Source of the DNA: a virus
Taxonomy: Duplodnaviria; Caudoviricetes
Reading direction: 5' to 3' (one strand)
Length of the DNA: 57,321 nt
IMG/VR virus record: IMGVR_UViG_3300037502_001747
Coordinates: 1-57,321 of that record
Shown: in pieces, positions 1,507 to 53,617 of the stretch
How the letters are laid out: the number at the start of each line of letters is the position of its first letter
Numbering within the stretch: the stretch's first letter is position 1
Notes under the pieces: model-generated
Seen by the model: the letters and a program-made list of their open reading frames with translations, nothing else
Databases searched by the model: none
What the model was told of the DNA's origin: nothing
Made by a program: the position numbers and the translations under genes

Positions 1507-3054
1507 TCATTCCTTTCCCATCTGGGCGATCAGGTCGAGGAGCACGCCCTGCAACTTCTGCTTATTCTGCAGACGCTGGTATATACGGTGCTCGACCTCA
1601 GTTGCTTCTATGTGCACTACGTTCGACACATGCTTCTTGCCGATACGTTCTACACGTCCGTTGGCTTGAACATACTGTTCGTTACTGGTGATAGGTCCAT
1701 ACCATACAACAGTTGACGCCGCTGTCAAGGTCAATCCATGCGCCATTGTTGCCGGGTGTGCGATAAGAACGCGCGGGTCGCGCGAGTTCTGGAAGTTGTA
1801 GAAGATGCTGTTCCGCTTGGCCGACGACACCTCGCCGTTAACCACAGCCACGCTCCAGTCCTTGGACAGTTCGCGCTCCAGCATCCGCAGGGTGCCTGTC
1901 AGGGGGACGAACAGGATGACCTTCTCGCCTGCCTCCTCGATCACCTCGCGCACTGCGTTGATGCGCGGCTTACAGTCCAGTTCGAGCGGCTCTCCGTTCT
2001 CCCCGTAGGCCACGCCCAGCGCGATCTGGATCAGCTTCTGCGCCTTGACCGCCTCGTTCACTGCCGTGATGGTGCCGCCCTCGACCTCGGTGACCAGCTG
2101 CCGCAGCATCTGCTTGAAGTGCTTGGCCTGATCCGGGGTCAAGTCCACCTTGCGCGTCTGCGTGATGGTGTCCGGCAGGTCGAGACAGTCCTCACGGGTG
2201 AACCTGATGGATGGTTGGAGCACGTGCTTCACAACGTCCACGCTCTCGGGCCGGGGCACGAACTTCCACTGGCCGATCTTCATCATGACCTGCTCACGGA
2301 ACCCGGTGAAACTCTTGGACATGTGCGGGCTATCGACCAGCTTGGCCAGTGCCCATGCGTCGGTCGGTTCGTTGGGGGTGGGTGTGCCTGTCATCAGCCA
2401 CAGTCGCATGTTGGGCTGCACCTGCAGCCAGCGATAGAACTGCTTGAAGCGCCGGGTCGATGGGTTCCTGTACACCGCCGCCTCGTCGATGATGACGAGG
2501 TCGAACTTATCCAGCGCCTCCTTGGCGATGATCGGGAAGCCGTCGTGGTTGATGATGTAGAAGTCTGCGTCGGTATCCAGCAGCTTGAGCCTGCGCTTGG
2601 CGTCACCGTAGAGGGTCACCGACTTGCGGTGGTAGAACTCCTTGAAGATAGCGTCGGCCCACACTCGCTCCAGTGTGGAGAGAGGGGACAGGATCAGCAC
2701 CTTTTTGATCACGCCCTTGTTCATCAGGAAGTCGGCTGCCCACAGGGAACTCACCGTCTTGCCAGTGCCGATCGAGTTCAGCACCAAACATCTTTTGTGC
2801 AGCGTGAGGAACTCAGCCGTGGACTTCTGGTGAGAGTAGGGGGTGAACCGGCCGGGCCAGTCGTACTGATATCCAATCGGTGATGGCGGGTTGAACCCCA
2901 GTTCCTTGAGGCGCTGCATCTCCTGCACCCGGTGCGGCATGACCACGATGCGGGGATCGGACGGAAGTTGGCGGGCCTTGGGTATACACTCCAGTACCCT
3001 ACTGGGGTCATTCAGCTTGAGGGCGACTGCCTTCGCCTCCTGCACGACGAGCAT
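1507..3054 (-). CDS. SNF2-family (SF2) helicase
   Basis: Walker A GTGKT, IIDEAA, MTGTPTPN, HGLTLTAA, QANGRVERIG. Confidence 0.92.
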   Translation of the reverse strand: MLVVQEAKAVALKLNDPSRVLECIPKARQLPSDPRIVVMPHRVQEMQRLKELGFNPPSPIGYQYDWPGRFTPYSHQKSTAEFLTLHKRCLVLNSIGTGKTVSSLWAADFLMNKGVIKKVLILSPLSTLERVWADAIFKEFYHRKSVTLYGDAKRRLKLLDTDADFYIINHDGFPIIAKEALDKFDLVIIDEAAVYRNPSTRRFKQFYRWLQVQPNMRLWLMTGTPTPNEPTDAWALAKLVDSPHMSKSFTGFREQVMMKIGQWKFVPRPESVDVVKHVLQPSIRFTREDCLDLPDTITQTRKVDLTPDQAKHFKQMLRQLVTEVEGGTITAVNEAVKAQKLIQIALGVAYGENGEPLELDCKPRINAVREVIEEAGEKVILFVPLTGTLRMLERELSKDWSVAVVNGEVSSAKRNSIFYNFQNSRDPRVLIAHPATMAHGLTLTAASTVVWYGPITSNEQYVQANGRVERIGKKHVSNVVHIEATEVEHRIYQRLQNKQKLQGVLLDLIAQMGKE

Positions 3055-3339: not shown

Positions 3340-4011
3340 TCAAGCGGCAAATTCGCAGAAGCCCTTGCAGGGGCAGAACTTGCACAGCCCGCTCGGCTTG
3401 GCGGGCCAGTTGTCTGTCTCCACTGACTTCTCCACTCGGTGGATGCGGGTCAGCAGCCGGGTCCACATGTCGTCGAGGTGCTCCCGCTTGTACGTCTCCT
3501 TGTCGGTGGCGTTCTCCTTGGTCCACACAAACATGGATGACACACGGTCGGCCGAGGGCCAGAAGCTGAACACCGCAAGGGCGAACATCTCCAGCTGATC
3601 GAAGTCGGGGCGGCGCTTGCCTGTCTTCCAGTCGATCACGATGGCCCTGCCGTTGGGGCGGATAGCCAGCACGTCCAGCTTGAAGCGCAGCCATGCGTCC
3701 GGTGCGAACCACGACGTGGGCTTGAGGTCACTGGTCAGGGTGTACTCCTGCTCGACGAGCAGCATCCCGCCACCCTTGGCGTTTTCGATCACCGTGTCGC
3801 ACAGCGGCTTGAGTGCAGCGGTCTCCTCCGGCAGGCCAGTGGCCGGAGCCTTGAGGTATTCTTCTAGCTGCTTGTGCACCCGCTCACCGTAGACCGTGGC
3901 CGTGCCCGGCTGGTCCTGCACCTCCTTGGTGACACGCTGGTGGTAGTACCTCTTGGGGCAGTTCTCGTACATCTTGAGGGCAGTGTACGAGTGGGCCAGC
4001 TTAACAGTCAT
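3340..4011 (-). CDS. PD-(D/E)XK Cas4/RecB-like exonuclease
   Basis: SYTALKMYENCPKRY, GERVH, KLD...IDWKTGK, QL, and a C-terminal CKFCPCKGFC cysteine cluster. Confidence 0.88.
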   Translation of the reverse strand: MTVKLAHSYTALKMYENCPKRYYHQRVTKEVQDQPGTATVYGERVHKQLEEYLKAPATGLPEETAALKPLCDTVIENAKGGGMLLVEQEYTLTSDLKPTSWFAPDAWLRFKLDVLAIRPNGRAIVIDWKTGKRRPDFDQLEMFALAVFSFWPSADRVSSMFVWTKENATDKETYKREHLDDMWTRLLTRIHRVEKSVETDNWPAKPSGLCKFCPCKGFCEFAA

Positions 4012-5876
4012 CACGTCTCTCCATAGGTGTCGGCCGTGCCTGCCTCGCAGGCGACGGGCAGGTCAGGCGCCCAGTCCGGTGGTGTGGACATGATAGCCAC
4101 GATGTCCTTCTCCGCCTGCTCGGCCCGGTCTTCAGGCACTACGCAGACGTTCTCGTCATGCACTTGGAAGGCGACGTGGTAACCTGCGTCCCTGATCTTG
4201 AGCATCTGCTCAGCCACCACGATGCGGGCCAGTGCTTGGGTTATGTTCTCCACAACCATCGCCCCGTAGATGCGGCTCTGGCCGGGGACTACCCCTCTGC
4301 CCACGTCCGTCGTGTCACCTGCCAGTCGTGCCTTCATCGCCCGGTCGAACATGCGGCGGTCTTGGATGTAGGTGAACTGTCGGTCGGTGGCTTGCAGCCC
4401 GTGGTAGCGCAGCTTCATCCCGTTGGGCAGGTTGATCCCCTCAGGATCGTAGGTCAGGATGTTGCCAATGCGCCCCTTGCGCCCCGCTACCATGCCCGAC
4501 AGGGCGTAGCCACACTCTCCCCACAGCTTGACGATGTGGTGGTAGCCAGTGCGATAGGTGTGGACCAGACGATCCACGTCCTCTTCCGGCAGGTCGACAG
4601 GCGGCTTGCCCCGCTTGAGTGTCAGCCCGAACTTGTCCGCGCTCATCCCGTAGCCCAGCCCGAGGATCGCAGCCTTACCCACGTGGCGTTCCAACTTGTC
4701 TGCCTTGCTGACCGGGCGACCGTAGAACTTGGTGGCGAACTCCGAGTACACATCCCGTCCTTCACGGAACTGCTGCACAAGATCAGCCTGCCCTGCGAGG
4801 TAGGCCACCATGCGGGCTTCGATCTGGCTGCTGTCGCAGCTGATGATCTTGTGTCCTTCCGGTGCCCGCAGTGCGTTGCGCAGTGCCCCACCACGGGGGA
4901 GGTTCTGTAGGTTCAGCTTCTCCCCACCAGAGAAGCGGCCGGTGTGTGCACCGTAATAGTTCAACATGATAGGCAGCCGGCCCCGGCGGCTCACGTCGAT
5001 CAGCCTCTTGGTGCGCGTCTCCTCCAGTGTGGACTTGAGTCCAAGCCGTGCGGTTACCAGCGTCTGGACCACGGGGTCAGGGTGGTCCTGCAACGCGATG
5101 AAGTCGAGGTCTGTCTTGGCGAAGGCGAACGTCTCCTTGCCAGTGGTGGCACTGGTCTTGGTCGGCGGCTCGACGCCACGCCTGCGCAGCAGCTTGGCGA
5201 ACTTGTCGTTGGACATGATGATGTCCTTGCCCTTGCCGCCCAGACTGTGCAGCAGCGCCAGCTTCCCTTCGAGGACCGTGTTCAGATGGCTACCCAGTAG
5301 GTCCTCATCCAGTTCCACCATCGGCTCGGTGTACATCCTGATGGTCGTGTCGATCACACGCAACTCGCTGACCGGGAACCCCTTCTTCAGTTTGCGGAAC
5401 AGTTCGTAGGTCAACTCGATGTCGTTGGCACAGTACTTCATGTAGGCTGCAAGTTCTGCGGAAGAGAAGTCCTTGCGCCGTTTGCCCAGAGCATGGGTGA
5501 CTTCCTCACCCTTGACACCCAACTCGTAGTGCTGGGCCAGCGCCTTGAGGCTACCGCCCACCGTGGCTTGGTGGAGGGGCCGCGCCATAGACAGAGTGTC
5601 CAGCCACAGCTTGGGCTTGACGCCGTAGTTCCATGAGAGGATGGCCCCGTCGAACATGGTGTTGTGGCAGAGGATCGCCTTGTCGCTGTAGTCCAGCGAC
5701 TTGAGGAACTTGCCTGCATCCGAACCGCTGTAGGTATCGACGGGTCCGTCGTTCACCTTAACGCCAACACCGATCACCTCGAACTGTGGGTCACGGATGT
5801 ATGCCTCGGTGGTGATCTTCGACAGGGAATAATCCTTGTCGTAGTATGTCTCGAAGTCGATCGTTACTATGTCCAT
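4011..5876 (-). CDS. polA: Family A DNA polymerase with 3'-5' exonuclease domain
   Basis: Exo I TIDFETY, HTGRFSG, NLQNLP, motif A DSSQIEAR, motif B RHVGKAAILGLGYG, motif C QVHDE. Confidence 0.95.
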   Translation of the reverse strand: MDIVTIDFETYYDKDYSLSKITTEAYIRDPQFEVIGVGVKVNDGPVDTYSGSDAGKFLKSLDYSDKAILCHNTMFDGAILSWNYGVKPKLWLDTLSMARPLHQATVGGSLKALAQHYELGVKGEEVTHALGKRRKDFSSAELAAYMKYCANDIELTYELFRKLKKGFPVSELRVIDTTIRMYTEPMVELDEDLLGSHLNTVLEGKLALLHSLGGKGKDIIMSNDKFAKLLRRRGVEPPTKTSATTGKETFAFAKTDLDFIALQDHPDPVVQTLVTARLGLKSTLEETRTKRLIDVSRRGRLPIMLNYYGAHTGRFSGGEKLNLQNLPRGGALRNALRAPEGHKIISCDSSQIEARMVAYLAGQADLVQQFREGRDVYSEFATKFYGRPVSKADKLERHVGKAAILGLGYGMSADKFGLTLKRGKPPVDLPEEDVDRLVHTYRTGYHHIVKLWGECGYALSGMVAGRKGRIGNILTYDPEGINLPNGMKLRYHGLQATDRQFTYIQDRRMFDRAMKARLAGDTTDVGRGVVPGQSRIYGAMVVENITQALARIVVAEQMLKIRDAGYHVAFQVHDENVCVVPEDRAEQAEKDIVAIMSTPPDWAPDLPVACEAGTADTYGET

Positions 5877-12649: not shown

Positions 12650-12951
12650 GAGGGCACCCCCTCTAATGGGGTGTATCCCTGCATCCTAAGGCCGGCGATG
12701 TAAGCGATCATCGCGTCACGCTCATTTGCTTCGAACATTTTCTCCGTAATCGACCTGTATATACCACCCATGGCATAGTGATGGAACTTACCCTCCCTGC
12801 TGGACGCCACGAGTATCCGGGCCACACCGTAGCGATCCTTGTGCGCCCGTCCCCTTACCAGCAGGACTCTGAACTGCATGGGTCGTCCCCAGTAGGTAAC
12901 GAGGTAGCGTCGCCGCCACCCCGTCGTTGTTTTGCCTGCCTTGCTGCCCAT
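12643..12951 (-). CDS. Hypothetical protein
   Basis: TGATG coupling with the upstream gene. Confidence 0.6.
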   Translation of the reverse strand: MGSKAGKTTTGWRRRYLVTYWGRPMQFRVLLVRGRAHKDRYGVARILVASSREGKFHHYAMGGIYRSITEKMFEANERDAMIAYIAGLRMQGYTPLEGVPSW

Positions 12952-14108
12952 CACATACGAACCCGGCAGTGCTCCCCGAAGGGGGCGGTCATGTCAGTCG
13001 TCATGGCCCAGATCAGGGGGTAGTTGCAGCCCTCGGGGTAGGGGGTGTAGCCGTCGGTCAGCACGATCGTGCAGACCACAGTGTCAGCATGACCCTCTGC
13101 TTCGAGGTAGTCGAAGGCAGCACGCACGTCAGTGCCGCCACCACCGTGGAAGCGGATGTCGAGGGCATCGTCCGGACCGTAGCACTCGTAGTGGGACACC
13201 GTGCTGTCGAAGTATATGACGTGCATCTTCTCAGGACGCAGGTCTTCGTGCACCATCCGCATCTCGGCCGCCATCTGTGCCAGTTGCTGGTCATCCACAG
13301 AGCCAGAGCAGTCAACGAAGAAGGCAATCGGACCCATCACCTCACCGCTACGGCTGGGCATATACATACCCTGCGAGAGGAAGCGACGGTTGGGGCGGGC
13401 GAAGCTACGCTCGTCAGTCTTGTGCTTGACCACGAACTTCTGGAGCACGTCACGCCAGTCGACGGTGGGGTTGAGGATGCTGTCCACCAGACGGGCCATG
13501 CCTGCTGACAGTTTGCCCATCATCTTGGCGGCTTGTGCAGCCTGTGCCACCTTGACCTTCCACTCAGCAGCCTGTGCAGCCTGCTCAGATGCGGTGCCAT
13601 CACCGTCCTCAAGGTCAGAGCCAGTGCCGCCGGGACCATCGCCGTCACCCTCGCCTTGGTCAGGGAGCAGGGTGTAAATCTGCTCGGACACACCCTGTCC
13701 GGCAACATACAGGTCCTTGTTGAGGCAGCCACACTCGATGAAGGCACCGATGCCCTCGTCGGTCAGCAACTGGTTGATGACATAGTCCGCAGCCTTGTTC
13801 CACTTGCGAGGATCACGGGACTGGCGGCGGAAGTTGTGCTCCAGCATGGGGTGCATACACTCATGGGCCACGAGGAACTTAAGCTGGTCGTCGGTCAGGT
13901 CGGACACGAAAGCGGGGCTGTAGAGCACCCGCTTGCCATTGGTGCGGGCCGTCGGCTTGATCTTGCTGGCACGGAGTGCGTCCTCAAACTCCGGCGTCAT
14001 AAACGTGTGCGGCATACCAAGGGCGATGGCGCCGACGAAGGGATGTTCCAGCACGAGGCTGGTCTTGGCCTTAGCCAAGCGGGTCTTGAGTGTGTCGAGA
14101 GATTGCAT
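12951..14108 (-). CDS. DUF2201-type metallopeptidase-like plus vWA domain protein
   Basis: TARTNG, AHECMH (HExxH), MIDAS DCSGS, GGGGTD, LTDGY. Confidence 0.88.
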   Translation of the reverse strand: MQSLDTLKTRLAKAKTSLVLEHPFVGAIALGMPHTFMTPEFEDALRASKIKPTARTNGKRVLYSPAFVSDLTDDQLKFLVAHECMHPMLEHNFRRQSRDPRKWNKAADYVINQLLTDEGIGAFIECGCLNKDLYVAGQGVSEQIYTLLPDQGEGDGDGPGGTGSDLEDGDGTASEQAAQAAEWKVKVAQAAQAAKMMGKLSAGMARLVDSILNPTVDWRDVLQKFVVKHKTDERSFARPNRRFLSQGMYMPSRSGEVMGPIAFFVDCSGSVDDQQLAQMAAEMRMVHEDLRPEKMHVIYFDSTVSHYECYGPDDALDIRFHGGGGTDVRAAFDYLEAEGHADTVVCTIVLTDGYTPYPEGCNYPLIWAMTTDMTAPFGEHCRVRM

Positions 14109-14344: not shown

Positions 14345-14686
14345 TCACTCCTTGTTGAGCTTGGATTCTACGCGCTTCTGCCACAGTCCGTAGGCTTTCA
14401 GCATGTCGTCGGGCCAGAGGTCGTGGTGCACATCCTTGAGAGTGAAGTCCTCCCATGGGGCGTCGCCGACCCGGACGGACAGCACCCTGAACAGCCACGG
14501 CTTGGGGTGGGACTGGTGCACAGCGTCCGTCTCCCTGACCCTCATGGACACAGGTTCCTTGAGGTTCTTGGGCGGGATACCCAGCAGGTCGGCCAGTCGC
14601 AGTGCCTTCTTGAGCTTGGTCATCAGCTCGATCTTATGATGGAGCAGGACGATCATCTCGTCGATGTTTGTGAAGACGTCAGTCAT
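14345..14686 (-). CDS. Hypothetical protein
   Basis: GGAGG RBS; ATGA overlap. Confidence 0.65.
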   Translation of the reverse strand: MTDVFTNIDEMIVLLHHKIELMTKLKKALRLADLLGIPPKNLKEPVSMRVRETDAVHQSHPKPWLFRVLSVRVGDAPWEDFTLKDVHHDLWPDDMLKAYGLWQKRVESKLNKE

Positions 14687-15543
14687 ATGTTACCTCCCAT
14701 AAATGCGCCCATCTTAGCCATGATGTCGGCCGCCTCGGTTGCCACCTGCTTACGAAGGACCGGGTTGTCCTTGATGCTGTCCTTGGTGTGGCTGGCCAGC
14801 TTGGTCTCCACCTCGTAACGCATGGCTTCGAGGTGAGGATCGTCAGTGAAGTTCAGCCGGGGCAGGATGCGACACAGCTCGATGGCGTTGTCAAACAAGC
14901 TCTCATACAGCCGACCCTCCGTGTTCCCCAACCGCTCGGACATCAGCTTAACATGATCGTAAAGACGTTGCCAAGCCTCACGCATAGCCAGACTGGAACT
15001 CTCCTCGACCCGACGCTGGATGTCAGCATGGATGCCAGCCAGTTCGTCGTCTGCCAACTGGACACGGAAGTCGTTGGTCGGGACGGGCATGACCACGAGG
15101 TCCATCTTGAACTTGTGCTTTAGGTCGGAGACATCGGGGTAGTCGGCCGGATCGTAGAGGTTACCGAGGAACCGCTTGGCCGTGATCTGGAGGGACGGGT
15201 AGTCTGTCAGGAACTTACGCACCACAGTATCCCACTCCGACTTGCGTTTGCGGAAGGTGGTCATGAAGCCGAGGTAGTTGGCGGTCGGCAGCATGTGGGT
15301 GTTCTCCAGACCCCACGGCAGAGTGTTGGCGTAGAACTCCCGACGGATGTCACCCGTCATGGTGTGGATGTTGGCAAGGCTGTCGCTCATGGGCAGCAGC
15401 TTCTTGTTGTAGTTCCCTGCATCGCGGCTGGCGTAGTTGGCATCGGCCACCTCACGGGTGGCTTTTTTGTCCAGCTTACGTGCCGTCCACTGGGAGACGT
15501 TGAGTTGCACCAGCAGGGCGCGGTCGGAGAGTTGTGTGGTCAT
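14683..15543 (-). CDS. DUF3150-like protein
   Basis: Start MTTQLSDRALLVQLNVSQWTARKLD after GAGGA; TLPW, YDPADYP, LNFTDDP motifs. Confidence 0.7.
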   Translation of the reverse strand: MTTQLSDRALLVQLNVSQWTARKLDKKATREVADANYASRDAGNYNKKLLPMSDSLANIHTMTGDIRREFYANTLPWGLENTHMLPTANYLGFMTTFRKRKSEWDTVVRKFLTDYPSLQITAKRFLGNLYDPADYPDVSDLKHKFKMDLVVMPVPTNDFRVQLADDELAGIHADIQRRVEESSSLAMREAWQRLYDHVKLMSERLGNTEGRLYESLFDNAIELCRILPRLNFTDDPHLEAMRYEVETKLASHTKDSIKDNPVLRKQVATEAADIMAKMGAFMGGNI

Positions 15544-15553
15544 AGCTGTGTCC

Positions 15554-15880
15554 TCAGTTAGAGATGCGGTTGACGGTGAGGAGGGCGAGAACCTCCTCCT
15601 TGGACAGGGAGGCAGGGTTATCCACCTCGCTGATGGGGATGTTGCCGAGGAGCATGGTGCCGTCCTCGTTCCTGACGTAGCAGACACGGTAGTTAACCGC
15701 CGTGGAGTGGTCCACGTCGTTCACCTGACCCCAGAGTTCTGCGGCGAACTCGTCCGTGCCGTCGTCGTTGTAGTGGTCAGCCCGCACCTTCTCGACGACA
15801 TCAGGCAGGCTGTCTGCTTCGACCTCGACGATGCCATAGACACAGACATCGTAGGCCAAGCAGAGGGTGAACTTGGGCAT
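15554..15880 (-). CDS. Acidic hypothetical protein
   Basis: AAGGAG RBS; 108 aa. Confidence 0.7.
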   Translation of the reverse strand: MPKFTLCLAYDVCVYGIVEVEADSLPDVVEKVRADHYNDDGTDEFAAELWGQVNDVDHSTAVNYRVCYVRNEDGTMLLGNIPISEVDNPASLSKEEVLALLTVNRISN

Positions 15881-15904: not shown

Positions 15905-16075
15905 TTAGGGATACCAAGCCAGTATCTTGGGATCACCTTCGATGATCCCAATCAGGTCGCAGTTAACGGTGTCGACTTCCCATTGCCGCACCGCATCCTC
16001 TTGCGTGTCGCCTTCATAGACCTCACAGCCTATGTCGAGGTTCCACGCCTGCCAAATCAGGGTGAACTTAGCCAT
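15905..16075 (-). CDS. Acidic 56-aa protein (not in ORF track)
   Basis: MAKFTLIWQAWNLD...ILAWYP; TGATG coupling to the AAA ATPase. Confidence 0.6.
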   Translation of the reverse strand: MAKFTLIWQAWNLDIGCEVYEGDTQEDAVRQWEVDTVNCDLIGIIEGDPKILAWYP

Positions 16076-17067
16076 CAGAACAAAACGCTCTGATGACGGA
16101 TCGACCAGTCAATGAAGCCCTTGGTGGCGGTGACGGAGGGATCACGACGGACAGCCATGGACATAGCCAGAACACTAAATTCGGCAGGCATACGAGTGAG
16201 ATATGTTACTGCTCTGTCCACGTTTGACGTGGAGATGCGGTTGGAGATGGCGCCAGACAGGGCGTAGAGAGTGGCCGGATCAGACGGCACGTCGGCACCG
16301 TCAGGGTTGAGCAGGATAGCGTCGGGGTTGGGCAGCTTACGGTAAATCTTGAGGAACCCCACGAACTCAGCGGCAGCCCCCTCACCGACGGCACCCTTGA
16401 AGCAGTCGAACTCAGCCTCAGGAGGGACCACACCGAGGACGGCACTGACACCCTCGGCCCAGCTACGAGGGGTGGAGTTCTTGTTACGCTGGGGGTCGAA
16501 GTCGTGGAGCAGACCGGGACGGAAGCGGATGAAGGCCACCACCTCAGGCTTGACACCGTTGGTAAGGGCCCAGCCAGACCAGTCGTCGAGATGCGTCTCG
16601 AACTCCAGCGTGGTCTCACGATCAGAGAGGTGGGACAGGACACGGTTGGCACCAGCCCGGTCAGACTGACGGTTACCAGTGGAGACGACAGTCCAGCCCT
16701 CTGCCATAGGCACACCGTGGAGGTTCCGTGCTTGGCAGATGTTAGCCAGAACCTTCTGGATGTCGGCAGGTGCTTGGTTCCGGTCGTCGAAGCAGAGCAC
16801 ACCACCACGACCGTCGTCGTAGCGTGACCCCTTGGAGGGGAACCAGTCGGGGATTTGGTAGGTCAGGGTCTCCTTGCCAATGACAGGGATGCCGAAATCC
16901 TCGACCAGCATGGTCGGCAGGTGCTTCTCGATGTAGTGCAGACCGAGGCTGTCAGCGACAGACCGGACAAGGGTGGTCTTACCACCCCCCGGAGCGCCTT
17001 CGATCGCCGTGGTGCGGTTGATCGAGATGAGGTCCTTGAGAGTGTCGGACAGAAGTGTGGGACGCAT
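16075..17067 (-). CDS. MoxR-like AAA+ ATPase
   Basis: Walker A GAPGGGKT, Walker B LCFDD, TGNRQSD, TPRSW; GGAGA RBS before MRPT. Confidence 0.9.
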   Translation of the reverse strand: MRPTLLSDTLKDLISINRTTAIEGAPGGGKTTLVRSVADSLGLHYIEKHLPTMLVEDFGIPVIGKETLTYQIPDWFPSKGSRYDDGRGGVLCFDDRNQAPADIQKVLANICQARNLHGVPMAEGWTVVSTGNRQSDRAGANRVLSHLSDRETTLEFETHLDDWSGWALTNGVKPEVVAFIRFRPGLLHDFDPQRNKNSTPRSWAEGVSAVLGVVPPEAEFDCFKGAVGEGAAAEFVGFLKIYRKLPNPDAILLNPDGADVPSDPATLYALSGAISNRISTSNVDRAVTYLTRMPAEFSVLAMSMAVRRDPSVTATKGFIDWSIRHQSVLF

Positions 17068-17123
17068 TGTGTATGTCTCCATTGGTGTTGTGGCTGTCCG
17101 CTCCGCGGAGCGGCAGCACAGTT

Positions 17124-17190
17124 TCGGCTTGTCTCATCAGTGCCGTGGTAGCCAACCACGACAGACGGGGGGCGAACCCCCTGTTTCGAC
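17124..17190 (-). ncRNA. Type II hammerhead ribozyme with loop I/3'-tail pseudoknot
   Basis: Minus strand: GUC-GAAA-C-A-GGGGG-UUCG-CCCCC-C-GUC^-UGUCGUGGU-UGGCU-ACCACGGCA-CUGAUGA-GAC-AAGCCGA. All core nucleotides and three stems are present. Confidence 0.88.
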
Positions 17191-17191
17191 G

Positions 17192-17977
17192 TTATCCCAG
17201 CCTCCGGCTGCTAGCCACGATGGCGGTCAACTCCCGCCAGCTGCTGACGTAAGGCACCTCCTCGGTGGTCACGGTGTCGTAGAAACGCTGGACTTGGAGC
17301 CGCACCGCAGCCAGTTGAGTGTCGACAGCATGGAAAGTGGACCACTCACGGACGATGTCAGGGTAACGATCCACCTCGTCGAGGCACCGGACGGTGCTGT
17401 CAGTGACTTGTGCAGCAGAGTAGCGCCACCTACCCTGACGAGGGTCCAGACCGAGACGAACTTGAGTCCGTAGCCACAGGGAGAACTGGTTGAACCCCGA
17501 CGTGTGGTAAGCGTCCTTGGATGCTTTACGATCCACCCGGTATCTGGTGAAGGGCTGAGACCCAGCAATGAGCCGATGGTCCTTGTCCAACGAGGCGAAG
17601 TCAGGGGTGTAGTAACCACGACGGATGCCGTCAGCGTCAGTAGCCCAGAGAACCGGGCCAGTAGGGCAGGTGTAGCTGGGCTGGACAACACCACGGAAGA
17701 TGCCACGGACGGCATCGTCAGTGAGCCGAGAAGCGTAGGGTTCGAGGTCGATAGTGCCACCCTTGTGATAGGTGATGATGTCAGTGTGGTAGAGCCGGAT
17801 CGAGACGCTCTCGTCCTTGGGGTTGAGCCGGATGGTGAAGTTGTCGTTACGACGCTGAGCCACAGGACGGATGTCGATCTTACGACCACGGATCGGGGCG
17901 ATGCTGTGGTATTTCTGGAGGGCCTGTTCGTAGGACAGGATGCCGTGACGAGGCAGTTGGAGGTTGGAACCGAACAT
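17192..17977 (-). CDS. Hypothetical early protein
   Basis: 261-aa ORF; IRLYHTDIITY motif. Confidence 0.75.
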   Translation of the reverse strand: MFGSNLQLPRHGILSYEQALQKYHSIAPIRGRKIDIRPVAQRRNDNFTIRLNPKDESVSIRLYHTDIITYHKGGTIDLEPYASRLTDDAVRGIFRGVVQPSYTCPTGPVLWATDADGIRRGYYTPDFASLDKDHRLIAGSQPFTRYRVDRKASKDAYHTSGFNQFSLWLRTQVRLGLDPRQGRWRYSAAQVTDSTVRCLDEVDRYPDIVREWSTFHAVDTQLAAVRLQVQRFYDTVTTEEVPYVSSWRELTAIVASSRRLG

Positions 17978-46225: not shown

Positions 46226-49200
46226 ATGGCAGATCGCGGACTCTCCTTCACCAACCCGCTGTTCGACTCCATGAACGCCGGGTTGCGAACTCCTGTCGGC
46301 ATTGCCGCTGGCGCACCGTCCAACTCCATCGGGCTTGGCAACCTTGCCCCCAACCGCGCGGACACTGCGGTGCAAGGGGAGCGGGCGGTACCCGGTGGTA
46401 CTGCAAGGCGTGCACTCCAAGCCCTGTCGGCTCCGCCTGCGGCGACTGCGCAGCAGTTCTTCTACCCGGAGACCGGGCAGATTTACTCCGGCGGTCGGTT
46501 GTTCAATCGGGACGATGCGACGTCTGCGTTTGCAGCGCCTCTCGCAGAAGCACCGCCGCCCCCGCCGGGTGGCGTGCCGTTGTCGGCCGAGTCCTATGGG
46601 CGGTACCTGCAGTCGTTCGGTGAGCGCCGGACTACTGGTGAATTGTTAGGGCTGGGCGTTCGGCAGGCGGCCGAGGGGCTTATCGGTGGCGTGGGGGCTG
46701 GGCTTGAACTGGCTGGCGCAACTGAGGTTGGCCCCGCCATTCGTGGGTTCGCGCAGGAAGCCTTTGGTCAGACCGAGAACGAACAGTTGCGGTCGGCGCT
46801 GATCGCCGAGAACAGCACCATGTGGGAGCGCGTCGTCGACGCCTCCATCCAGAGTGGCCCCACTCTGGTGTCCATCATCGGGACCGGTGGTCTTGTCGGT
46901 GCGGGGCTTCGTGCTGTGGGTGCGGGTGCTGCCATGGCTACGGCCGGGGCTACTGCTGGTGCAACTGGTGCCAGCTTCCCCATGCACCTGTCCTCGTTCT
47001 ACGACGCGGCGGAGCGCAACGGCTTCGACCTGACCGATCCGAAGGTTAAGACCGAGATCGTCGGCGGCGCAGTGGCCAACACGCTTCTGGATACGTTCGG
47101 CCCGGGGATGATCTTCTCCACCGCCTTCCGCCGACTGGCAGGCGAGGTTGGTGGGCAGGTCGCTCGTGGTGCACTGAAGAACGCAGCCATTGGTGCTGGC
47201 CGCATCGGGTTCACTGAAGCCCTGACGGAAGGTACCCAGACGCTGCTTGAGTCCGTGGTCTTCGACCCGGAAGTGCGGAGCACGCTGGCGGTTAACGACC
47301 TCAAGCTACTCGCGCCGATGATCGCGGAGAAATACGGCGAGGACATCCTCGTCTCTATGGGTGCGGGTGCCATCCTTGGTGGTGGTGTCGGCGGTGTGGT
47401 TAGCGCACGCGCCACGCCCGGCCCGCAAGAACTCCCGGCTGACAAGCCGGTCGACCTGACCCAGCAAGGGGTTGAGCCTGAAGCCCCGGCCGCACAGCCT
47501 GAAGTCCCAGCCGCAACTGGGCCGCTTGCGCTGCCGTACATCCCGGGTGCCGAGACTATCGGTGCGCGGCCGCGCGATCTGCCGTATATCCCCGTCGCAC
47601 CGATGGGGCCGGAGCAGGTAATTGATCCCAACCGCCCGCTGACACTCCAGCAAGTTGGGCTTATGCGGGGTGCAACTCGGGGCCTGCGCCCCGAAGATCG
47701 TGCCGCTGGCAACATCACTGTGCCGAGCGGTGAGCGTGCGGTCACGCTTGAGGGTGAGGTCCTGCCCCCGGAGACCATGGCTGCTGCACCGCAGGCTGCC
47801 CGCCTGCGTACTCTTGGTGCCCCGGCTGCTGCACCGCAACTGACCCCGCCCGGGACTGGGGCGGCGGACTTCACTGCTGGTCCGGAAGGTGTCGCTCCCA
47901 CCGGCGCTGCTCCCGCTGCGGCTCCTGCCGCTGCTCCCGTTACTCCGGGTGCGCAGCTTCGTGTTGGTGCTGCGCCGCGTCCCGGCATCCTGCCCGCTCC
48001 CCCGCAGGGGGCTATGGCCGACCGGTTGCGCGCGGCTATGGCTGCACGGCAAGAAGCCGAAGCACGGCGTCAGGCGGAAACCACTGCGCAGGAAGCTGCG
48101 ACCCGGGCCGCACAAGAGGTGGCACGGCAACGCGCCACACAGGTCGAAGAAGCCTATGCACAGCGGGAAGCCCAGCGCGCCACGATGTACAGCGCGGAGC
48201 AACAGGCAGCTTATGACCAGCTGACGGCTGAACAGAAAGCCTACGTCGACGCCGACACGGTGTGGGAACAGTTCCGTCCCGAGCAGAGTGGTGTCACTCT
48301 CCGTGACCTTGCGCCCAAGGCGCAGCGCGAGTGGGTCGCTGCCGTCCAGCGGGGCACCGCTGATCAGGCGTTGTACCAGAAGCTGCGCAACCGCCGCCCG
48401 GTGGGCAAGGCAGCCCCTCTCGTGGATGTACCCACGATCCTGCAGGCTGCGCCTGAACCTGAGATGACACCGCCGGAGCCGACGCCGCCCAAGCCCACTG
48501 GTAAGGCCAAGGTCCAGCGCAAAGCCGCTGAGCCCAAGGCGCCCAAGCCGCTCAAGGTGCCCAAAGAAACCCAGCCCTCGGCGGGTAAGCCCCGGGCGGA
48601 GGCAGTCACTGTCGAGTCGACCAAGCGGTCGCCTCGTGGTGCAGAGCCGCACAGGATAGTCACGCTGTCAGATGGGCGCGTCATTCGCATCAAGCACACC
48701 GGCGACAAGTTCGCCGGCTCGTGGACTTTCCTCAAGACTGGCGACGTTATCGGAGAAGGGATCAAGGCCGACGATGCGGCCGCGCGCGTGGCGGAACTCG
48801 CCTCGCAGGGTCAACTCTCCGATGCCGTCGTAGACACTGAGCAGGAGGTGGCGGCTGAGCCGACCAAGCTGAGCGTGGTCGAGGAACTTGAGGCCGACAT
48901 CAACGACTTCATCACGGTGCTTGAGTCTTCCACGGATAAGTTCGACCGCCACGCTGCGATCAGTGGGTTGCAGGATGCTCTAATCGACCCGTCCATCACG
49001 CCTAAACTGCGGACGCGGGTGAAGGACTACCTTGCTGAACTGGGCCCCGAAGTTGCGGCCGGTGATCTGAACGCCAAGACTGACGTCAACACTGCCACTG
49101 CGCAGCTGACGCTTATGATCGAAGACTTCAACGCTGCCCCCGGCGATGTCACCCGCACGTGGCAAGATCAGTTCCGTCGTCTGGTTGCCGCAGTGCGCAA

Positions 49201-52200
49201 GGAAGACCCGGGGGCTCGCTTCGGCGATCGTGGCCTGCTGACCTTCGCCAAGGCCAATGGTGACCCCAACTTCGCGCGAGTGGATGGGGTGCGGCAGATC
49301 GTCGGTGCCCCCGGCGGCTTCTCACTCGCCGACTGGAACACCATCGACGGGGTCGTGGACCTCGACGGTAGGCCGGTCACCCCGGTTGCACCCGGTCGCG
49401 TGCAGCTTCTGGCGCGCAACTTCGCAGCAAAGCTGGCGCGGGCACCCAAGATCACCGTCGTTCGCAACCAAGCTGACCTCAAGGCCAAGAACCCGCAGCT
49501 TTACGCCCGGGCAGTGGCAGCCCGCCCGCAGGGTGACTTCGATACTGCAGCCGCCATGGGGTACTCCTTTGGTGATGGGCAAGTCATCATCTTCTCTGAC
49601 CGGATCGGCACGGAACAACAGCTTCGCTTCGTCCTCGCCCACGAGACGATGGGCCACTACGGCCTGCGTGGCATCATGCCGGGTCCGAAGTTCGACGCTC
49701 TGATGGAGACGTTGTACACAGGCGACAGCCGCATTCAGCGCGCAGTCGACGCCGCGATGGCGGTCCGGCCGGGCATGTCCCGGGCCGAAGCCGTGGAAGA
49801 ATACTTGTCAGACTATGCCGCTGTGCTGGAGACGAGCATCGTCGCCCGCATCTGGAATGCCATCAAGGGTGCACTCAACAAGCTGGGCATCACCACTGGC
49901 GACGAGATGGTGCGCTACCTCCTAGACCAAGCCCGTCGGTACGCGCGTGATGGTAAGGGTGTGACCTTCGACGCCGGGGCAGTTGCTGCCCGTCTGCACA
50001 GTGTCGAGACCTCTGGTGACACAGGGCGCTTTGCTATCGGTGGGTCGCTGCGCGACGTCAACACTGTGGCCGGAACGATGCGGGACACCGTCGGTGGTAT
50101 GCCGATGAGCATCGAGGAAGGCTGGCGATTTCTACAAGGTCAGGGCGTTAATTCTGTCGATACTTGGGACCGGTTCAAGGCCAAGTTCTTGAGCCTTGCG
50201 AACTTCCGGGCGCGGCAGAACCCCGGGCTGGCAGCCCTCGAAGAACTGATGGACGAAGCCCGCAACATCTCCATGTCGCTCAAGGTTGGGTTCAACGAAG
50301 AACTCCAGCTGGTGCTTAACCGCGCCATTGCGGGCGAGGTCGGTGGTATCTCGGATGCCCAGACTGACCGGATCAACAAGATGCTCTACGCAGCGCAGCG
50401 GTTCAACGTGGCGGCGCTTCGCAACCAGCCTGACCTTGGCAACGTGCCGCTGTTCCGCTCCGAGGGTGGACGGCTGGTCCCCAACCAGCCCGAGGTTGAC
50501 CGCCTGCGCCGCATGGGTCGCCGGACCTTCGCGCAGATGCGTGATGGCTTCGAGTACCAAGTCTCCTATGAGGAGGCGGGCAAGACTGTCACCAAGACGG
50601 AACGCTTCGCCGGGTTCCCTGACCTCAAGGAGACCAGCAACGAGTGGCGTGGGTACCTCAAGGTACGTGACGCCATGGATAAGATCGAACTGGAGTTGCT
50701 GCGTGCGCGCTATGAGGGCGCGCTCCAAGAGCGTGATCTGGCATTCCGCCAGATTGCTGCCACTGTCCCCGAGGGGGAACTCAGCACGGCAGAACGCGCA
50801 GCACTGACCCAGCTGGCCGAGACCTACGGTCGGCTCTACACCAGCGACGTCACGCAGGACGAGACCGGCCGCGCAGTGCTTAACCCGAGATACCAGACCT
50901 ACGCCAACGATGTCCTGCGCACCACCAATGCCGCTCTCCTTGGCAAGGGGGACGACCGCTTCGATGCGCTGCGCACACTGCTGACCAGCCCGCGGGGGTT
51001 CACCACTGGTGAGGGGGATGCTACTAAGGTCGTAGATTCCCTGCCTGCAGCCATGGACGCACAGGCGGCTGACGATCTGATCGCGCAACTCAAGCAGTTC
51101 AAGACCCGGATGCGCATCGGCGAAGATCGCTTCGTGGTGCAGAACAAGATCAAGCAGATCATCCTGTCCGAGTTGGCAAGTAAGGACGCTGACAAGTACA
51201 CCAAGCGGACGATCGCCACGGGCTACACCCCGGTGCTGCGTGAGGGCAAGTTCCAAGTCCGGGTTGAGGCCACGGTGGGTGACCGCCCGGTGCGTCTGCA
51301 GGACAACTATCGGGAGCAACTGGTCTACTCGCAGGTGGATACTCCGGCCGAGGCGCTTGAATTGGCCAACAAGATCAATGGCACCTTCGGCGACACCGAG
51401 TTCGAGGTCATGGCCTACGACCAAGAGGCTGGTGAGTACCGGCTCCGCAAGGTTAAACTCAAGGCTGTGTCCGAGAGCGCACTCGACGCTGTGGCTGCGC
51501 CGCCTGAACTGAACCTCAACGAGTTCATCCGTGGCCTGCGGCAGTTCGATATCGCCCTCACGCCCGACAAGATGGAAGACATCGTCGTCGCCCTGACCAA
51601 GCAGAACAGCGCAGCACGTAACAGGCTGGAGCGTGCCTTCGTTCCCGGGGCTGACCTTGACGGCGTCATGGCCACCATGCGCCACATCGAGAGCCGTGCC
51701 TCTACCATCGCCAAGGTCATCATGCGGCCGCGTCTGGCCGAACTGATGGACCGCAGCATGGAGTCCACGCAGCGGCTGTGGAACGGGGATGCGGACACTC
51801 TGGCCAAACTCAAAGCCCGGGCCGAGTCGCTTGCTGCCAATCAGACAGCGACCAAGGAGGAGATCGCCGACGCGCAGCGGAAGTACGAGCAGTACGCCTA
51901 CATGTACGAGCAGACTAACCCGCAGGGCAAACCGCGCCGCGCGAACCAGTTCTACAACGAGGCAGCCAGCACCGTCGCTTTCCTTGACGGCAACAAGAAC
52001 GTGGACGAGTCGGACTTCGGCTCTGGCCCGGTCGTCTCGGCGGTGCGCGCCGCCACTTCCATGATGCAACTCGGCGGCTCCGTGGCCACGGGTGCGCTCA
52101 ACGTGCTCAGCGTCTACACCAACGGCATCCCGTACCTGTCCAGCTATAACCCGAAGACCGCCTTCGGCGGTGGGTTCGCTGTGGGTAAGGTGGTGACGGA

Positions 52201-53617
52201 ACTGCACCGCGCAGCCGCGCAGGTAGGCGGGCCGGGGATCACCAGTGGTGCGATGAACACCGCTGAGTTCTACGACAAGATTGCCACCGACCGGGCACTG
52301 CAGGACCGGTACGGCCTGAAGCCGCACGAGGCGCGGTTCATCGCACAGGAAATCCGGGACGGGGCCATGATCCCGGCCCAGTCCAACGCACTGGTGGGTA
52401 CCGCCCGTGGCCGCACGACCAAGGGATGGCAACAGAAGTTCCTCGACGGGTGGATGTGGACGTTCAACGTCACGGAGCAGGCATCGCGCCGCTCTCTGGG
52501 TCTGACTGCTTACCGGTTGGAGTACGCCCGCAGGCTGGAGGCTGGGGCCAGTGAGAAGGATGCGGCCGCTGCTGCGCGCAAGTTCGCTGTTCAGGCGCTG
52601 CAGTACACCATGGGTGAGTACTCCGTCCTCAACCGTCCGCCAGCGTGGCGCTCGGGCATTCAGTCGTTCATCTACATGTACAAGGTGTTCCCCACCACGT
52701 CTGTCCAGATGTTCATGAACATGTCCCGTGGCGGCAAGGTCGGTATGCTGACCGCACTCTGGCTGCTCAGCGGTCTGGCTGGTCTGCCCTTCGCCGAAGA
52801 CATCGAAGACCTCGTGGATACACTGGCACAGAAGCTGAAGGTGCCCGGCTGGCAGGGTGCACGGTACGAGACCGCGCAGTTCATCGACAGCATCTTCCCC
52901 GGCATGTCTCCGATCTTCCTCAAGGGGATCGTCAACCAAGCTGTCCCGGCCGACGTAGCTGGCCGCACCTCTCTTGGCGACTTGCTGCCCGGAACCGATA
53001 TCTTGTTGGCCGGAAGCGACGTGGCTCGTAGCATCTCGGAGATCGCCGGTCCTGCACCATCCATGCTGCTGGGCACCGCCCAGTTCGCCACCGACATCAT
53101 CGCCGCTCCGTTCTCCAAGGCTGTCACTGCGGAGGATGTTCTGCGCGAGGCGCCGGTCACGATGCTGCGCGCGACGGCGGATGCCTACGCCTACATCCAG
53201 AGCGGGGCAGTGGTGGATCGCCGTGGCTACATCGTGACCGACGACATGTCGGCATCGACCGTCATTGCGCGGGCACTTGGGTTCTACCCGTCCGCAGCAG
53301 CGGCGCAGTACGACACGATCCGGGCTGCCAAGCGCATGACCGACTACCAGCGTGAGGTCGTCACGGCGTACCGTACTGCATGGGTCAAGGCCATGATGCG
53401 CAACGACCGTGAAGGGGCGCGGGAGATCGAGGCTGCCGTCGAAGAGTGGAACAAGTCCGCCGCTGGCACGGCACTGGAGATCAACAACTTCGTGAAGAAC
53501 TCGCGCCGTACCCTCGGGGAAGCGCGACGCCCAGCGATGGAGCGGACCTTGCGGGCCGCACCTGATGCCGCTGAGCGTGATCTTCAGAACATGGTCGATC
53601 TGCTGACGGCGAACTAG
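46226..53617 (+). CDS. Giant internal virion/ejection protein (2463 aa) with zincin-like motif and PLxRFG-like region
   Basis: LAHETMGHYGLR...AVEEY; YTPVLREGKF; last gene of the structural arm. Confidence 0.8.
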   Translation: MADRGLSFTNPLFDSMNAGLRTPVGIAAGAPSNSIGLGNLAPNRADTAVQGERAVPGGTARRALQALSAPPAATAQQFFYPETGQIYSGGRLFNRDDATSAFAAPLAEAPPPPPGGVPLSAESYGRYLQSFGERRTTGELLGLGVRQAAEGLIGGVGAGLELAGATEVGPAIRGFAQEAFGQTENEQLRSALIAENSTMWERVVDASIQSGPTLVSIIGTGGLVGAGLRAVGAGAAMATAGATAGATGASFPMHLSSFYDAAERNGFDLTDPKVKTEIVGGAVANTLLDTFGPGMIFSTAFRRLAGEVGGQVARGALKNAAIGAGRIGFTEALTEGTQTLLESVVFDPEVRSTLAVNDLKLLAPMIAEKYGEDILVSMGAGAILGGGVGGVVSARATPGPQELPADKPVDLTQQGVEPEAPAAQPEVPAATGPLALPYIPGAETIGARPRDLPYIPVAPMGPEQVIDPNRPLTLQQVGLMRGATRGLRPEDRAAGNITVPSGERAVTLEGEVLPPETMAAAPQAARLRTLGAPAAAPQLTPPGTGAADFTAGPEGVAPTGAAPAAAPAAAPVTPGAQLRVGAAPRPGILPAPPQGAMADRLRAAMAARQEAEARRQAETTAQEAATRAAQEVARQRATQVEEAYAQREAQRATMYSAEQQAAYDQLTAEQKAYVDADTVWEQFRPEQSGVTLRDLAPKAQREWVAAVQRGTADQALYQKLRNRRPVGKAAPLVDVPTILQAAPEPEMTPPEPTPPKPTGKAKVQRKAAEPKAPKPLKVPKETQPSAGKPRAEAVTVESTKRSPRGAEPHRIVTLSDGRVIRIKHTGDKFAGSWTFLKTGDVIGEGIKADDAAARVAELASQGQLSDAVVDTEQEVAAEPTKLSVVEELEADINDFITVLESSTDKFDRHAAISGLQDALIDPSITPKLRTRVKDYLAELGPEVAAGDLNAKTDVNTATAQLTLMIEDFNAAPGDVTRTWQDQFRRLVAAVRKEDPGARFGDRGLLTFAKANGDPNFARVDGVRQIVGAPGGFSLADWNTIDGVVDLDGRPVTPVAPGRVQLLARNFAAKLARAPKITVVRNQADLKAKNPQLYARAVAARPQGDFDTAAAMGYSFGDGQVIIFSDRIGTEQQLRFVLAHETMGHYGLRGIMPGPKFDALMETLYTGDSRIQRAVDAAMAVRPGMSRAEAVEEYLSDYAAVLETSIVARIWNAIKGALNKLGITTGDEMVRYLLDQARRYARDGKGVTFDAGAVAARLHSVETSGDTGRFAIGGSLRDVNTVAGTMRDTVGGMPMSIEEGWRFLQGQGVNSVDTWDRFKAKFLSLANFRARQNPGLAALEELMDEARNISMSLKVGFNEELQLVLNRAIAGEVGGISDAQTDRINKMLYAAQRFNVAALRNQPDLGNVPLFRSEGGRLVPNQPEVDRLRRMGRRTFAQMRDGFEYQVSYEEAGKTVTKTERFAGFPDLKETSNEWRGYLKVRDAMDKIELELLRARYEGALQERDLAFRQIAATVPEGELSTAERAALTQLAETYGRLYTSDVTQDETGRAVLNPRYQTYANDVLRTTNAALLGKGDDRFDALRTLLTSPRGFTTGEGDATKVVDSLPAAMDAQAADDLIAQLKQFKTRMRIGEDRFVVQNKIKQIILSELASKDADKYTKRTIATGYTPVLREGKFQVRVEATVGDRPVRLQDNYREQLVYSQVDTPAEALELANKINGTFGDTEFEVMAYDQEAGEYRLRKVKLKAVSESALDAVAAPPELNLNEFIRGLRQFDIALTPDKMEDIVVALTKQNSAARNRLERAFVPGADLDGVMATMRHIESRASTIAKVIMRPRLAELMDRSMESTQRLWNGDADTLAKLKARAESLAANQTATKEEIADAQRKYEQYAYMYEQTNPQGKPRRANQFYNEAASTVAFLDGNKNVDESDFGSGPVVSAVRAATSMMQLGGSVATGALNVLSVYTNGIPYLSSYNPKTAFGGGFAVGKVVTELHRAAAQVGGPGITSGAMNTAEFYDKIATDRALQDRYGLKPHEARFIAQEIRDGAMIPAQSNALVGTARGRTTKGWQQKFLDGWMWTFNVTEQASRRSLGLTAYRLEYARRLEAGASEKDAAAAARKFAVQALQYTMGEYSVLNRPPAWRSGIQSFIYMYKVFPTTSVQMFMNMSRGGKVGMLTALWLLSGLAGLPFAEDIEDLVDTLAQKLKVPGWQGARYETAQFIDSIFPGMSPIFLKGIVNQAVPADVAGRTSLGDLLPGTDILLAGSDVARSISEIAGPAPSMLLGTAQFATDIIAAPFSKAVTAEDVLREAPVTMLRATADAYAYIQSGAVVDRRGYIVTDDMSASTVIARALGFYPSAAAAQYDTIRAAKRMTDYQREVVTAYRTAWVKAMMRNDREGAREIEAAVEEWNKSAAGTALEINNFVKNSRRTLGEARRPAMERTLRAAPDAAERDLQNMVDLLTAN

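Follow-up and report, generated by a model that had tools for sequence, protein, structure and literature searches.

A pseudoknotted type II hammerhead ribozyme ahead of a MoxR-like ATPase module in an uncultured phage lineage

The DNA analysed here (the window) is the complete 57,321-base IMG/VR virus record IMGVR_UViG_3300037502_001747 (Duplodnaviria; Caudoviricetes), which carries direct terminal repeats. Its minus strand contains, at 17190-17125, a complete type II hammerhead motif that fills the gap between the gene of a 261-amino-acid (aa) protein and that of a MoxR-like ATPase. The same motif occupies the same place in related viral contigs, where its core is conserved and its stems covary. 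We are highly confident that the element is a genuine type II hammerhead of the Rfam family RF02276, in the pseudoknotted form, and we consider it strongly probable that it is a real and very probably self-cleaving ribozyme within the transcript of the leftward replication arm. The element belongs to a known class, and what is new is a member in an uncultured phage lineage with a fixed place before a MoxR-like ATPase module. Already in print are descriptions of the type II class and its pseudoknot, of how abundant it is in phages and metagenomes and of the small, variable genes that it flanks (Perreault 2011, PMC3088659; de la Pena 2017, PMC6155905).

Results

Architecture of the ribozyme

Read base by base in the 5' to 3' direction of the minus strand, the element runs from C17191 through GUC, GAAA, stem III, GUC, stem I, CUGAUGA, GAC and A to AGCCG. 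Its parts are as follows.

17188..17190, minus strand: stem II 5' strand GUC (11.3-11.1), paired with GAC at 17133-17131; the three pairs are invariant in 11 of 11 distinct sequences
17184..17187, minus strand: core GAAA (G12 A13 A14 A15.1), invariant in the alignment of 11 distinct sequences
17165..17184, minus strand: stem III hairpin, with A17184-U17165, C17183-G17166, the mismatch A17182.C17167, G17181-G17177 paired with C17168-C17172, and loop UUCG at 17176-17173
17166-17164, minus strand: cleavage triplet GUC
17163..17164, minus strand: predicted cleavage site after C17 (17164), with a putative new 5'-OH end at U17163, following from hammerhead core geometry
17141..17163, minus strand: stem I hairpin, UGUCGUGGU (17163-17155) and ACCACGGCA (17149-17141), nine pairs, loop UGGCU at 17154-17150
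17134..17140, minus strand: core CUGAUGA (C3-A9), invariant in the alignment of 11 distinct sequences
17131..17133, minus strand: stem II 3' strand GAC (10.1-10.3), paired with GUC at 17190-17188
17125..17129, minus strand: 3' tail AGCCG, forming the pseudoknot with loop I through U17150-A17129, C17151-G17128, G17152-C17127, G17153-C17126 and U17154.G17125

The consensus core as listed in the Methods of Perreault 2011 (PMC3088659) is present throughout: C3 U4 G5 A6 N7 G8 A9, G12 A13 A14, A15.1-U16.1 and H17, with U17165 and C17164 in their places. The core-adjacent pairs 1.1-2.1, 10.1-11.1 and 15.1-16.1 are all formed (U17163-A17141, G17133-C17188 and A17184-U17165, respectively) and each is invariant in 11 of 11 sequences. 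Loops cap stems I and III and stem II is open, which is the type II topology. The third pair of stem I is a U.G wobble, and the pseudoknot comprises four Watson–Crick pairs and one U.G, placing it among class members with a run of at least four pairs. An earlier sequence-only reading of this DNA had identified a type II hammerhead here with a pseudoknot between its tail and loop I. All of its structural details hold, its coordinates and pairings, including the cut between 17164 and 17163, are correct base for base, and AGCCG can indeed pair with UGGCU. The identification is borne out by covariation in syntenic relatives and in a wider set of phages, and the tail–loop pairing covaries in the latter.

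With RF02276 the element shares the core, the permuted topology, a pseudoknot between loop I and the segment following stem II (present in most, not all, members of the family) and the phage or metagenome habitat, and its loop UGG and tail AGCC motif is that of the Rfam consensus. It differs in that this lineage has a stem II of 3 base pairs (GAC/GUC) followed by a linker A, whereas the Rfam consensus has two pairs, and in that the window copy carries the A.C mismatch in stem III and scores 4.8 bits under the family cut-off.

Detection in the window

Infernal aligned positions 17122-17191(-) with model positions 1-66 of 66 of Rfam Hammerhead_II (RF02276) at 32.2 bits, with E = 4.2e-5 when 211 local bases were searched and 0.011 for the window as a whole. 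Among 4227 families this was the sole Rfam match at E≤1 within the window. Infernal with Rfam models was a check proposed by the sequence-only reading: the match covers the full model (32.2 bits, E=0.011), and a scan of the window at the gathering score reported nothing, since 32.2 bits lies below the cut-off of 37. A custom descriptor covering hammerhead types I, II and III, of which a later version tolerates one mismatch, accepted one of the 40 CUGANGA sites of the window, namely the 17190-17125 element. A stricter form demanding three contiguous stem III pairs accepted no site in the window, this element included, because of the A.C mismatch in stem III. The loose form also found matches in 14 of 300 Markov-simulated windows and is weak evidence if taken alone. 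Neither Rfam at E≤1 nor the descriptors for types I-III revealed a second ribozyme in the window that could bracket a gene. A search of 14 control genomes with RF02276 gave no match, and blastn of 16900-17500 against 50,697 phage records likewise returned none.

Conservation and covariation in syntenic relatives

Homologues of the ATPase and of the upstream 261-aa protein were used to gather 21 viral-contig loci, two of them from one contig. A search by core pattern placed the motif at the syntenic position in 18 of these 21. Three loci lack it: L016, and two whose contigs break off within a gene, the ATPase gene in L013 and the upstream gene in L022. Hammerhead_II was reported by cmscan in 15 of 20 scanned loci at 34.7-43.6 bits; 12 of the 20 pass 37 bits (39.2-43.6) and three more lie at 34.7-36.7. 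Two further copies, L002:2935-2994 and L003:2917-2974, have the full motif, yet cmscan does not list them at E≤1. Each of four near-complete related genomes contains exactly one copy, and the block from hammerhead through ribosome-binding site (RBS) to ATG is conserved among relatives, whereas the genes upstream vary.

Ten distinct sequences from relatives were aligned with that of the window, and 25 pairs, including those of the pseudoknot, were assessed against 500 shuffles. Across these 11 distinct sequences 95.8% of cells are paired, compared with 34-47% after shifting the partners by 1-3 columns, and nine of the 25 pairs have changed on both sides (41 cells). None of the 500 shuffles attains the observed pairing or covariation score. 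The covarying pairs are six of the nine in stem I and three in stem III, among them 15.3/16.3 and 15.4/16.4, while no variation is seen in the core, in stem II or in the pairs at the centre of the pseudoknot. In this alignment 94.5% of pseudoknot cells are paired. Covariation and an invariant core in related phages had both been named beforehand as checks on the identification, and both came out in its favour, with compensatory change in nine pairs and no variation of the core in 11 distinct sequences. Since the motif is conserved and covarying in relatives, we regard the question of chance as settled.

Three of the relatives have an additional ORF (open reading frame) of ∼140 aa, starting with MPMTT, between the 261-aa homologue and the ATPase gene (L111:5342-5915, L126:1228-1840 and L021:3793-3885). 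In L111 and L126 this ORF is bracketed by two hammerheads, while L021 ends just past the first codons of the ORF. The two copies in L111 are identical over at least 81 nucleotides (nt), RBS included; those in L126 differ, with compensatory changes present.

Type II hammerheads in other phages

A wider set was chosen by the three core blocks alone, with no helix required, and at least 119 viral-contig stretches matched. The matches listed comprise 154 sites and 127 distinct sequences, and all counts from this set, here and below, are among the matches listed. Stem III has at least five contiguous pairs in 122 of 127 sequences (201 of 2540 shuffles) and stem I in 121 of 127 (38 of 2540 shuffles). 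A Watson–Crick run of at least four between loop I and the 12 bases 3' of stem II occurs in 88 of 132 distinct sequences, as against 1029 of 6600 with shuffled tails, and in these 132 the partner types of loop and tail covary (UGGCU/AGCCA, UGCCC/GGGCA, UGACCU/AGGUCA, UUGCC/GGCAA and others). This enrichment, together with the covarying partner motifs, argues that the pseudoknot is real for the class.

The phage ribozymes lie close to their neighbouring genes. The stop of an upstream ORF of at least 50 aa ends between -1 and +9 nt from the first ribozyme base at 105 of 129 distinct sites, compared with 203 of 6450 random positions, and at 49 of the 129 a UAG shares its G with the ribozyme. On the downstream side, 73 of 143 cases have an ORF start no more than 40 nt away. 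No description of this stop-codon abutment in phage hammerheads was found in the literature covered, which did not extend to supplements such as the alignments of Perreault 2011. A universal gene partner was considered and rejected: the 112 ORFs that follow phage hammerheads formed 82 clusters, and the 14 members of the ATPase cluster are a product of the way in which the loci were sampled.

Arrays of 2-5 type II hammerheads are seen in 13 viral loci, including L039:8754-11317, L087:30-1542, L129, L038, L053, L061, L082, L122, L127 and L137. Most array intervals consist of one ORF, from ∼25 nt past one hammerhead to the start of the next, and between the copies in one array there are mostly differences in both stems and in the pseudoknot partners.

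Gene context and transcription

The ribozyme lies in the coding sense of a long row of leftward (-) genes that further on includes the DNA polymerase (4011-5876) and helicase (1507-3054) genes, in agreement with the strand and row that the sequence-only reading had assigned to it. The rightward arm carries the portal/adaptor, tail and internal virion genes. Also on the plus strand is a giant ORF (46226-53617(+), 2463 aa), of which only the last ∼500 residues match families, phrog_11358 and phrog_21376 (function unknown). The features that flank the ribozyme are listed below.

17192..17977, minus strand: upstream gene, 261 aa, whose UAA stop (17194-17192) lies 1 nt (C17191) before the ribozyme
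17089..17120, minus strand: extra imperfect hairpin around the palindrome 17113-17098, between ribozyme tail and RBS, absent in most relatives
16075..17080, minus strand: RBS GGAG (17080-17077), ATG 17067 and the AAA_5/MoxR-like ATPase gene, with a start common to relatives
12951-14108, minus strand: VWA-like protein, two genes past the ATPase, Pfam DUF2201_N (1.2e-44) and DUF2201 (2.1e-20)

The 261-aa protein has homologues of 95%, 56% and 53% identity in L019, L020 and L021, and its ORF (17192..17977) matched no Pfam and no PHROG family. The ATPase start at ATG 17067 is also the one used by relatives that have no upstream in-frame ATG. The earlier labels for the three downstream genes fared unevenly. 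For MoxR, phrog_1297 'ATPase' matches at 1.8e-64 and N4-like phages have distant homologues of up to 31% identity annotated 'MoxR-like ATPase', while Pfam AAA_5 is a weak match (22.6 bits against a cut-off of 22). For vWA, the VWA-like domain stands and the exact families are DUF2201_N and DUF2201. The label DUF3150 for ORF 14683..15687(-), a conserved 334-aa module gene, is not supported, as this ORF has no Pfam match at E≤0.01 and no PHROG match. On the VWA-like protein (12951-14108) the libraries disagree, DUF2201_N being a putative metallopeptidase domain and phrog_1314 naming the protein 'HNH endonuclease'.

From the predicted cut to the ATG (17163 to ATG 17067) the leader measures 96 nt, close to the ∼95 nt given by the sequence-only reading, compared with 53-63 nt in most relatives. 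The longer leader of the window is accounted for by the hairpin insert of ∼35 nt. We place this hairpin outside the conserved design, since most relatives do without it. Its 16-base palindrome is not a repeated element of the window, where it has a single exact copy. In L126 a hairpin of unrelated sequence stands at the same place (1790-1825), and the leader there is 90 nt. In the fold computed for the predicted 3' product of the window, stem I begins right at the 5' end and the second hairpin comes after it (z = -3.1).

A promoter-like sequence, TTGTAA-17-TATAAT, is found ahead of the gene row at 18868-18840(-); it matches at 10 of 12 positions and is the only strong one on the strand. A consensus scan of the minus strand from this site to the ribozyme found no terminator-like sites. 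Contigs from two sequencing runs gave four short pieces of a relative, corresponding to 16407-16805 and 17293-17524, and none lies over the ribozyme.

Discussion

Proposed mechanism

From the observations above we infer that the RNA is cleaved in vivo, that it is co-transcribed with the upstream gene and that stability or expression may be affected. The window copy very probably cleaves in vivo, and we propose that transcript processing or insulation is probably its main role. After transcription had passed the stem II 3' strand and the tail of the pseudoknot, the RNA would fold and cut itself after C17164; a hammerhead cuts after position 17 to leave a 2',3'-cyclic phosphate and a 5'-OH (PMC3088659). 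The upstream product, with the 261-aa gene, would then extend 28 nt past the stop codon, with the GC-rich hairpin of stem III as its last structure and a 2',3'-cyclic phosphate at its end. The downstream product would begin with a 5'-OH at U17163, flush with the 9-base-pair stem I hairpin and still pseudoknotted to the tail. The pseudoknot can persist after the cut because loop I and tail share one fragment, and it has been described as required for fast cleavage at low Mg2+ (PMC3088659). The second hairpin, GGAG and the ATPase, 334-aa and VWA-like genes would follow. The ATPase-module mRNA would in this way be uncoupled from the RNA upstream and would start with a fixed, structured leader devoid of 5' phosphate. 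The 5'-monophosphate-dependent RNase E gains entry poorly at a 5'-OH. The action would be akin to that of a natural counterpart of the synthetic RiboJ insulator.

Evidence against and alternative readings

Several observations weigh against an active, processing ribozyme in the window. Its copy scores the 4.8 bits mentioned below the Rfam cut-off of 37 bits, because of the A.C mispair in stem III and of the extra stem II pair and linker base, which are modelled as insertions; the cut-off is an annotation threshold and neither a structural nor a biochemical defining feature. It is the lowest-scoring of the copies listed by cmscan (32.2 versus 34.7-43.6), the A17182.C17167 mismatch (15.3/16.3) is found in it alone of the 11 sequences, its fifth pseudoknot pair is U.G instead of U-A, and it is one of two among the 127 distinct sequences of the wider set with just two contiguous stem III pairs. 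The folding energy of the 91-nt region is no better than that of shuffles (z = -0.25) and the minimum-energy fold prolongs stem I into the core, which is thereby mispaired, although we rejected thermodynamic folding as a test since such programs do not model the hammerhead core. Two viruses lack the ribozyme before this gene. In L016, of all the relatives the most distant (its ATPase is 60% identical), the gap is a short intergenic region of the ordinary kind, and the N4-like Vibrio phage PJN101 (ATPase 30% identical) has no hammerhead and a 25-nt gap. Hence the ATPase module does not need a hammerhead. Co-transcription with the upstream gene is only a deduction, as the promoter- and terminator-like sites are consensus matches. 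Finally, none of the sequencing runs that contain the region is recorded as RNA, which is evidence neither way.

A reading that is compatible with a processing role, and that we hold only tentatively, is that the hammerhead and RBS form a portable junction for swapping gene cassettes. Single genes would be gained or lost by recombination between conserved blocks of 55-85 nt, with RNA cleavage as the price or the enabler of modularity. It would account for the extra ∼140-aa ORF in L111, L126 and L021, its bracketing by two hammerheads in the first two, the identity of the L111 copies over at least 81 nt including the RBS, and the retention of the hammerhead-to-ATG block among relatives whose upstream genes vary. 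The 13 loci with 2-5 copies and mostly one ORF per interval also fit, as do descriptions of hammerheads beside small non-conserved ORFs (Perreault 2011, PMC3088659; de la Pena 2017, PMC6155905). However, most array copies differ in both stems, with compensatory changes and stem identities of 0.2-0.9, and would therefore be poor substrates for homologous recombination, kept instead as independent working ribozymes. The window itself has a single copy and no bracketed cassette.

A more far-reaching version, which we consider improbable, treats phage type II hammerheads as half of a portable junction (stop, ribozyme, pseudoknot, RBS, ATG) that would combine ribosome-controlled folding with cassette exchange. 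The ribozyme begins at, or a few bases from, an upstream stop in ∼80% of the listed matches, and by abutting the stop it would come under the ribosome's control in its folding, so that the cut would report upstream translation. If this were true, the block would let phages insert, duplicate and exchange single-gene cassettes, as for example in L111, and the window element would be one such junction, now single-copy.

Gating by upstream translation alone, with cleavage occurring only when the site is free of ribosomes, is in our judgement slightly less probable still. In the window 1 nt separates stop and ribozyme, and a ribosome terminating there would mask GAAA together with the stem II strand before it and the 5' half of stem III after it; abutment is general in the wider set (105 of 129 sites versus 203 of 6450 random positions, with 49 UAG codons sharing their G). 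The downstream side is just as tight, however, with an ORF start within 40 nt in 73 of 143 cases, so that plain genome compaction explains the flush position. A fast, irreversible ribozyme would moreover need merely a brief ribosome-free moment, and we found no precedent: the words 'stop codon' are absent from the main text of Perreault 2011 (PMC3088659).

Comparably low is the probability we assign to the window copy being a decaying, inactive remnant of a ribozyme that works in related phages. The lowest Rfam score among the cmscan-listed copies (32.2 versus 34.7-43.6), the sole stem III mismatch among 11 distinct sequences and the U.G in place of U-A at the fifth pseudoknot pair would all be expected of such a remnant, but no change affects the 13 strictly conserved positions of the core or the three pairs beside it, stem III retains seven pairs, five of them in a G-C run closed by UUCG, and stem I keeps nine pairs and the pseudoknot four Watson–Crick pairs. 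Under the acceptance rules of Perreault 2011 (PMC3088659) a candidate fails if a mispair adjoins the core or if a short stem has several mispairs, and one with a single mispair off the core passes. Rather than being inactive, the window copy may cleave more slowly than those of its relatives owing to the A.C mismatch at 15.3/16.3.

That the element matches by chance, or that it serves another role, for instance as a protein-binding pair of hairpins, and is no ribozyme at all, is extremely improbable, given that, despite the 14 of 300 simulated windows matched by the loose descriptor and the score under the Rfam cut-off, 11 distinct syntenic sequences combine an unvarying core with covariation in both stems, 12 orthologous copies exceed the cut-off and none of the 14 control genomes is matched.

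Relation to known systems

Phage hammerheads have been proposed to cut long transcripts into gene-length mRNAs (Perreault 2011, PMC3088659), and the processing role that we favour for the window element can be set beside several described systems. In a prophage of Agrobacterium tumefaciens a triple arrangement at ardA likewise fills short gaps between co-oriented genes (Perreault 2011, PMC3088659). The single-ORF bracketing of such prophage clusters recurs in L111, L126 and 11 other viral loci among the matches listed, whereas the window has a single copy that marks one boundary and brackets no gene. HHphage of the haloviruses HF1/HF2 lies 13 nt before an early ATP-dependent helicase gene, with a mapped 5' end no more than 3 nt from the cut (PMC3088659), and resembles the window element in standing directly before the first gene of a multi-gene early or replication transcript. 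The core of HHphage, as described there, has an atypical insertion and its host is a high-salt archaeon, in contrast to the canonical core and 96-nt leader of the window. Type II hammerheads of Desulfovibrio vulgaris cleave in vivo, as seen by cyPhyRNA-seq (PMC8782182). They are of the same class and lie near phage-like genes; their loci are chromosomal and prophage-like in a cultured bacterium, and they are likened to the window element by class only.

The order of ribozyme, hairpin (17120-17089 in the window) and RBS (GGAG) is, on paper, that of RiboJ, although RiboJ is engineered and the window hairpin is natural and absent from most relatives. RiboJ is derived from a type III satellite-RNA hammerhead. 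It consists of a hammerhead and a 23-nt hairpin that normalise 5' leaders, and uncleaved mRNA has been modelled as decaying twice as fast (PMC7536230).

Significance

The finding leaves knowledge of the class itself unchanged. It does indicate that phage hammerheads are undercounted, since the window copy and at least two orthologues are missed at the default setting of Rfam or at E≤1. What hammerheads do in bacteria and phages is still called an open question (de la Pena 2017, PMC6155905). For that question this lineage provides a clean natural test case, with one ribozyme per genome at a fixed junction before an ATPase/VWA-like module. It also offers natural variation: stem III may carry a mismatch, a hairpin may be added, an extra gene may be bracketed, or the ribozyme may be missing altogether. 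Comparison of these variants could reveal the effect of cleavage on expression.

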